Source: Leucoraja ocellata (lineage: Eukaryota). Taken from it: a stretch of DNA of 64,000 nt. Of this stretch, positions 63,332-64,000 are shown piece after piece; positions within the stretch are counted from its first letter, which is position 1; each line of letters opens with the position of its first letter. The stretch is taken from assembly GCA_036785375.1 (NCBI GenBank), contig JAWMAR010001356.1, positions 186,001 through 250,000 on the forward strand, written 5' to 3'. The translations under genes and the position numbers were made by a program. Under the pieces are notes generated by a model, which ran no database searches, had not been told where the DNA came from, and worked only from the letters and a program-made list of their open reading frames with translations.

Positions 63332-63740
63332 TTTATCCGTTCCTATGTTTGTTTCATATGCGCTGAGAAGAAACAAACTGAGACCAAGTGAGACCTGCTG
63401 TTGATTAGAAAATACAGTTCGATGCATCGCAGATCAAGGACCACCACAATCTCAAACAATTAGAAAGCACAGTGAAAGCAAATTGATGCACAATGTTCCA
63501 CTAATTTGGAACTAAACCGCATCCACTTCATAGTCAAAGGATCGAAAGTCATAGCACATAAGGCGTTTAAATCGGCAATCTCACTGCAGCAAAATCACAT
63601 AACATTCTAAAGCAACATCGAACCAGCATTGCAATGAATGGGTAATTAATGTAGAAGAACAATTTAATATAATTATTAGAAATATAGGTTAAAATTACAA
63701 CTGGATACATCTAGAGACTGAATATGATGAAGTTTCTTAC

Positions 63741-63783
63741 CGCTGGTTACCGTCACCATGCTGCCTCCTCCCCAGTATTCAAG
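63741..63783 (-). CDS. IGHJ: Immunoglobulin heavy-chain joining (JH) segment, germline (unrearranged)
   Basis: Minus strand reads CTT GAA TAC TGG GGA GGA GGC AGC ATG GTG ACG GTA ACC AGC G|gtaag = LEYWGGGSMVTVTS. It has a WGxG motif and VTV, a phase-1 GTAAG donor, and an RSS directly abutting its 5' end. Confidence 0.95.
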
Positions 63784-63811
63784 CACAGTGAGACAGACCC
63801 GCACAAAAACC
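63784..63811 (-). promoter_or_regulatory. Recombination signal sequence of JH, 12-bp spacer
   Basis: Reading away from the J coding end on the + strand: heptamer CACAGTG (63784-63790), spacer AGACAGACCCGC (12 nt, 63791-63802), nonamer ACAAAAACC (63803-63811). Both motifs are perfect consensus. Confidence 0.95.
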
Positions 63812-64000
63812 TCACATACAGTCCACACTCAGGTTTCATTTGAAACACGATTTTAAATGGTCCAGCAGTTCACAGAGAACACAGTAAATATACATAACAC
63901 CAACAATCTCCCTTCGTCTCACTTGCGTTATGGAATGAGTATATTTTCGTGGTCTATGATTTTACACAACGCTATCGGTATGCGTGAGGCGAATATAAAA

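Follow-up and report, generated by a model that had tools for sequence, protein, structure and literature searches.

A skate IgM heavy-chain cluster with a D1-type 12-spacer signal on JH: a probable hybrid joint in the germ line

Antigen-receptor loci differ in the presence of D segments and in which segment bears the 12 or the 23 signal. Germline hybrid joining has been proposed as the cause of such differences, on the basis of one shark example (PMC2193153). The stretch of Leucoraja ocellata DNA analysed here (64,000 nt, hereafter the window) contains near its end an immunoglobulin JH segment that carries a 12-spacer RSS, and the question that it raises is how a heavy-chain J came by such a signal and what the cluster can still do with it. 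The answer favoured here, with a probability of roughly 0.68, is that the 12-RSS of D1 was joined to J with loss of both D segments, most likely through RAG-mediated hybrid joining in the germ line, leaving a cluster predicted to rearrange V directly to J.

The signal, CACAGTG-12 nt-ACAAAAACC, lies at 63784-63811 of the plus strand (heptamer 63784-63790, nonamer 63803-63811) and is the single match to the RSS consensus within the window, with none of 100 shuffled controls matching, so that the intact, full-consensus 12-spacer signal abutting J described in the initial annotation is confirmed; no consensus RSS with a spacer of 21-24 was found within the 64 kb. The heptamer is adjoined by a JH coding segment of 43 nt that reads, on the minus strand from 63783 to 63741, LEYWGGGSMVTVTS and is followed by a GTAAGA donor. 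The features of the cluster are as follows, L031 being positions 248001-258000 of the window's own contig (C1356, own assembly G000).

L031:2713-2668, minus strand: leader, with a GT-AG intron (beyond the window)
L031:2490-2187, minus strand: V exon, open (beyond the window)
L031:2148-2186: V 23-RSS (beyond the window)
63812-64000, minus strand: remainder of the V-D1 interval, continuing beyond the window to the V 23-RSS
63784-63811, plus strand: 12-spacer RSS, in its sequence the V-facing 5' RSS of D1, now on J
63783-63784, no strand: junction between the intact heptamer and a J without its first 5 nt, placed by paralogue comparison
63741-63783, minus strand: JH coding segment, donor GTAAGA
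58994-59290, minus strand: Cmu1 exon, open, AG/GT, donor common to the paralogues
57266-57583, minus strand: Cmu2 exon, open
55546-55845, minus strand: Cmu3 exon, open
53353-53744, minus strand: Cmu4 exon with secretory tail and stop
50220-50370, minus strand: transmembrane-like exon near 50290, limits approximate, from a motif scan only

The origin of the signal is indicated by the comparison with the other clusters of the same genome. The 28-mer RSS occurs letter for letter at 21 genome loci, at 20 of which D1 follows, the window being the exception; these 20 loci are IgM clusters laid out as V(23)-(12)D1(22)-(12)D2(12)-(23)J. When the own genome is searched with 63700-64000, all other matches are split into bases 1-84 (the J side) and 85-301 (the signal side), the two halves lying about 740 nt apart, and alignments against four paralogues end at L031:1783 or begin at 1784, that is, at 63783/63784. 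Relative to the 20 unrearranged clusters, 717-743 nt are missing, comprising D1, the 22-RSS, D2 with both its 12-RSS and the 23-RSS of J; the 5' side of D1 in these paralogues agrees with the window's RSS, spacer and upstream flank in 20/20 cases, and the flanks of the window's cluster are 97-99% like those of ordinary clusters. Straight after the heptamer, paralogous D1 segments start with TAC and the window has CTTG; in paralogous J segments CTTG is preceded by five nucleotides (CCTAT or ACTAT in 19/20) that are absent from the window's J. The joint has thus lost 0 nt on the signal side and 5 nt on the J side, contains no D base, added base or microhomology, and is single-copy in the own genome (search with up to 2 mismatches). 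Read base against base, the RSS at 63784-63811 is the 5' signal of D1 moved onto J and not a native JH signal; the polarity that the initial annotation had called TCR-like is therefore neither TCR-like nor ancestral. A reinserted copy of the excised D1-D2 piece was not found in the window or in C1356:248001-293931; the D1 3' signals in the genome number 25, corresponding to the 20 unrearranged and to 5 V-D1-joined clusters, and neither a reciprocal joint nor an orphan D1 signal survives.

As for the identity of the cluster, the CH4 exon shares 97% identity with an Amblyraja radiata protein and 71% with shark IgM heavy chains, which, together with four open constant exons and a secretory tail, bears out the earlier IgM assignment and makes this a skate IgM cluster; leader-VH, JH, four Cmu exons, the secretory tail and the transmembrane exon (the latter by motif only) are all contained in one minilocus. 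The layout is V(23)-403 nt-(12)J-Cmu1-4 with open frames, a single open frame running from J through the secretory tail, and the V with its 23-RSS located 403 nt from J would permit direct V-to-J joining, as had been predicted. The D1, D2 and J 23-RSS of the V(23)-(12)D1(22)-(12)D2(12)-(23)J order, all present in the 20 paralogues, are absent, and the window's cluster is a derived member of the elasmobranch IgM heavy-chain clusters. Other expectations of the first reading did not hold: the sequence beyond the window, where D segments with 12/23 signals had been anticipated, contains V and its 23-RSS, with no D at all between V and J; nothing pointed to the suggested TCR-type partners, as neither the window nor the last 36 kb of the contig (C1356:258001-293931) yielded another strong RSS or a reading frame resembling an Ig V; and the J, described as divergent, is typical within its genome, where WGGG is read in 38/40 JH and a start with LEY in 6/40. 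A motif scan of the window and of C1356:258001-293931 found no TCR-like element.

Two further observations concern the rest of the window. Positions 1-11211 are a partial duplicate (94-99%) of 45849-58598 containing Cmu2, the Cmu4-tail and the transmembrane-like exon; this copy is without the Cmu3 stretch (54783-57126), no Cmu1, J or V was found upstream of it, and it is a truncated constant-region copy. A short palindromic element is present in the J-C intron at 63105-63332 and at about 60810-61000; since the former copy is absent at the matching place of two other clusters (L034 and L036), it is taken as an insertion polymorphic among clusters.

The cluster belongs to a family in which germline joining is common. 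A J pattern search of the own genome yielded 40 JH loci, a lower bound, consisting of 20 unrearranged clusters, 19 pre-joined ones and the window's; the 19 comprise 4 VD-D-J, 13 VDD-J, 1 VDJ (L076, out of frame) and L063, which is described below. With the window's cluster counted, the pre-joined share of the family is 20/40; 17 of these begin V-D1, and a full VDJ is found only at L076. Across the 40 loci the JH is preceded by a 23-RSS in 37, by none in 1 and by a D-derived 12-RSS in 2. Four of the junctions are multi-copy (L059/L060, L066/L071, L067-L070 and L073-L075) and are therefore germline, because each occurs in 2-4 copies; with 19/39 of the other JH loci pre-joined, RAG has been repeatedly active on this germ line.

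Under the preferred explanation, RAG would have paired the 5' 12-RSS of D1 with the 23-RSS of J, which is a legal 12/23 pair whose members have the same orientation. Normal joining of a same-orientation signal pair inverts the interval between the signals. A deletion such as that seen in the window would result, following V(D)J chemistry, from the joining of a signal end to its partner's coding end: the D1 signal end would have been attached to a J coding end shortened by 5 nt, with the intervening piece of about 740 nt discarded. What is observed at the junction, namely a signal end on the coding end of its 12/23 partner, a break at the heptamer border and a small loss, corresponds to the definition of hybrid joints as products in which an RSS is exchanged between coding ends with loss of bases, which have been considered an evolutionary route for swapping 12 and 23 signals (PMC2193153). 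A two-step history, with an inversion first and a new cut at the signal joint afterwards, was also considered and rejected; it would leave inverted D bases, of which the junction has none. Against the hybrid-joint reading counts the rarity of such joints in mouse, where somatic ones are about 3 logs less frequent than normal D-JH joints (PMC2194253, in part).

The same end product would be reached by an ordinary germline V-DDJ cluster, in which a D1-D2 and a D2-J coding joint were made in two normal steps and trimming erased every D base; indeed, a one-step hybrid joint and two coding joints with total loss of D cannot be told apart by their products, and the predicted V-to-J joining would be the same. 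For this route standard deletional joins suffice, and V-DDJ is a known configuration (PMC2435157, in part; PMC2193153), found in nurse shark as a normal intermediate that is prominent in one group (PMC2435157, in part); moreover, germline joints show little N addition (PMC2193156, in part), and in one V-D1 joint of this genome (L062) only 2-3 nt of D1 are left, at least 8 nt having been lost from its V (5') side. It requires, however, that 11-13 nt be lost from the 3' side of D1 together with all 8-12 nt of D2, and that the loss halt exactly at the heptamer. In the six independent germline D1-D2 joints with a recognisable D1, the loss at the D1 3' end is 0, 0, 0, 0, 2 and 2 nt (a seventh joint, of the L067 type, is left out of the count, its D1 being not assignable), and none of the 19 other pre-joined clusters is V-DDJ. 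The trimming counts favour one-step joining over two coding joints, and among RAG-dependent routes the hybrid joint is the likely one; what weighs against it is that heavy D trimming does occur here (D1 of L062 and the 5' end of D2, which has lost 4-7 nt in pre-joined clusters) and that a sample of six joints is small. On balance the V-DDJ route is judged unlikely.

Whether the junction is inherited at all is a separate matter, since it might come from a clone of lymphocytes in the tissue that was sequenced or from a mis-assembly. That it is single-copy, unlike the four junctions mentioned above, and that many partial IgH rearrangements occur in shark thymocytes (PMC2435157, in part) are compatible with such an origin, as is the result of the independent data, in which no read or contig bridging the junction was found in 8 runs, these being weak tests. 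Logan contigs from four DNA-type runs (3 samples of 1 study, possibly of another species) stop at L031:1783 or begin at 1784; given that at five sites differing from the window they carry the letter of the paralogue majority, these contigs look collapsed and cannot show that the junction is absent. A somatic joint would lead one to expect its unrearranged source in the assembly, which retains four near-identical cluster pairs (0-0.3% difference); the other 39 loci include no such twin, and even the locus that comes closest on both flanks is 2.9% different on one of them. Within its contig of 294 kb the junction is 44 kb away from an end, and a mis-assembly has no reason to halt at the edge of a heptamer and no repeat to exploit there. 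A somatic or artefactual origin is accordingly regarded as quite unlikely, and from the missing twin and the 19 other pre-joined clusters the junction is taken to be probably a germline one. Also in favour of the germ line, private substitutions in the window's cluster number 4 in about 2 kb (L031 positions 1622, 1678, 2576 and 2624), 2 of them within the upstream kilobase, for which the other 20 clusters have 0-9, with one outlier of 29. The two flanks have different nearest neighbours (L044 and L053), but so do those of most other clusters, and the difference therefore says nothing for a join between clusters.

A deletion independent of RAG, for instance by slippage from one heptamer to the other (those of D1 and J are alike) in an ancestor that had a shortened J to begin with, is very improbable. 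Both heptamers end in GTG and point in the same direction, and one unrearranged J (L055) is 3 nt short at its 5' end; however, slippage from heptamer to heptamer would have retained the whole J, from which 5 nt are gone, a loss of those 5 nt is seen in none of the 37 J segments that have a 23-RSS, and two random breakpoints at these two spots have a chance of about 1e-5 by a rough estimate. The idea of a separate IgM lineage whose J has a TCR-like polarity of its own, with 12/23 D segments or TCR partners, to which the Ig-TCR trans-rearrangement and IgH-TCR linkage reported in sharks (PMC12227049, in part) might lend colour, has a negligible probability, given that the RSS is D1's own, that no D lies between V and J, that the flanks are ordinary, that 37/40 JH have a 23-RSS and that no TCR-like motif occurs in the examined part of the contig.

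In B-cell precursors, the arrangement of the signals predicts that one deletion obeying the 12/23 rule would produce a D-less VJ-Cmu gene with a single junction, in an assembly resembling that of light chains; such joining would be possible because the V 23-RSS is the usual signal of the family and the 12-RSS is at consensus. Joined bluntly, V and J would put 17 nt between the Cys codon and the Trp codon, which is an out-of-frame distance; the frame is predicted to come back if 2 nt are lost or 1 nt is gained, with a Cys-Trp gap of about 15-21 nt and a CDR3 of about 5-7 residues. For comparison, VDJ joints of single nurse shark cells measure 24-78 nt (PMC2435157, in part), and mice lacking D segments make VH-JH chains with shorter CDR3s that support all B-cell subsets, inefficiently because the join is 23/23 (PMC1237122, in part). 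No transcript of the cluster was seen: in three raw RNA runs, from a different organism than the DNA-type runs and sampled to 1-5% each, 0 reads fell on the stretch, and one putative-RNA contig set covers leader, V and J of the family without a V-J joint, neither result bearing on whether the cluster is expressed.

Loci of the V(23)-(12)J type are those of lambda-type light chains and of TCR alpha and gamma. The skate cluster shares with them the one-step V-to-J joining and the order of spacers, a likeness in layout only; its V, J and C are those of an IgM heavy chain. The D-less heavy-chain layout is also that of the mouse VH-JH case, which was engineered and breaks the 12/23 rule, whereas the skate layout obeys it (PMC1237122, in part). 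Germline-joined IgH clusters of sharks and skates are known as VD-J, VDD-J, VD-DJ and VDJ (PMC5192425, in part; PMC2193153; PMC2193156, in part), and like them the window's cluster is a V-D1-D2-J IgM minilocus changed at its RSS borders with trimmed coding ends; coding joints, however, keep D and lose the RSS, while here an RSS is kept, all D is lost and the J signal has changed from 23 to 12. One germline hybrid joint has been described in shark IgH, a D1-D2 inversion (Kokubu et al. 1988, described in PMC2193153), in which a signal end likewise sits on the coding end of another segment with the 12 and 23 spacers swapped; that case was an inversion and kept both D segments, whereas in the skate a same-orientation pair was involved, the D segments were deleted and V-D-D-J became V-J. 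Hybrid joints between DH and JH are known at the mouse IgH locus too, as somatic events (PMC2194253, in part). Germline IgH joining and one germline hybrid joint were, in short, already known, and what is apparently new is the deletion type that removes both D segments and leaves a V-J heavy cluster: neither a D-less V-J nor a 12-spacer-J heavy cluster was found in the literature searched, most subscription papers being outside its scope.

The parent layout, in 20 copies, and its product occur in one genome and are 97-99% identical, which lets the step be followed at the level of single bases; it is one that removes D rather than reshuffling it. The cluster also offers a natural test of whether a heavy chain that lacks D and is put together under the 12/23 rule becomes expressed and selected. 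It remains one of 40, is possibly neutral, and brings in no enzyme or pathway that was not known before. More tentatively, a germline hybrid joint may have made a putatively working D-less V-J locus and, taken with L063, signal swapping may be a recurrent and recent route; if this were true, skate IgH clusters would change RSS polarity and segment number through signal swapping, and the window would show, in a present-day animal, the step by which D-bearing and V-J antigen-receptor loci are proposed to have parted.

L063 (C353, J near 2382276) is a candidate second instance of the same D-J signal pairing. It consists of a V-D1 joint in open frame, the 22-RSS, the 5' 12-RSS of D2, a stretch of 7 nt and J; five nucleotides of that stretch form a palindrome of the J end, and these can be taken for an inverted or an altered D2 as well. 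The palindrome and inverted-D2 readings need a same-orientation D-J pairing, and the cluster, less clean than that of the window, is a candidate for a second hybrid joint, or for an inversion with re-cutting, that left VD1(22)-(12)J. Four clusters on C388 (L067-L070) have a common long V-D-D junction which, before the D2 3' RSS, ends in TTGTA, which is the D1 5' end in reverse complement and not the usual end of D2, possibly through inversion or an open-shut history. Finally, J coding ends behind an intact 23-RSS vary in length, being 3 nt shorter at L055 (C1824) and 2 nt longer at L067-L070 and L073-L075; these ends are candidate germline open-and-shut joints.
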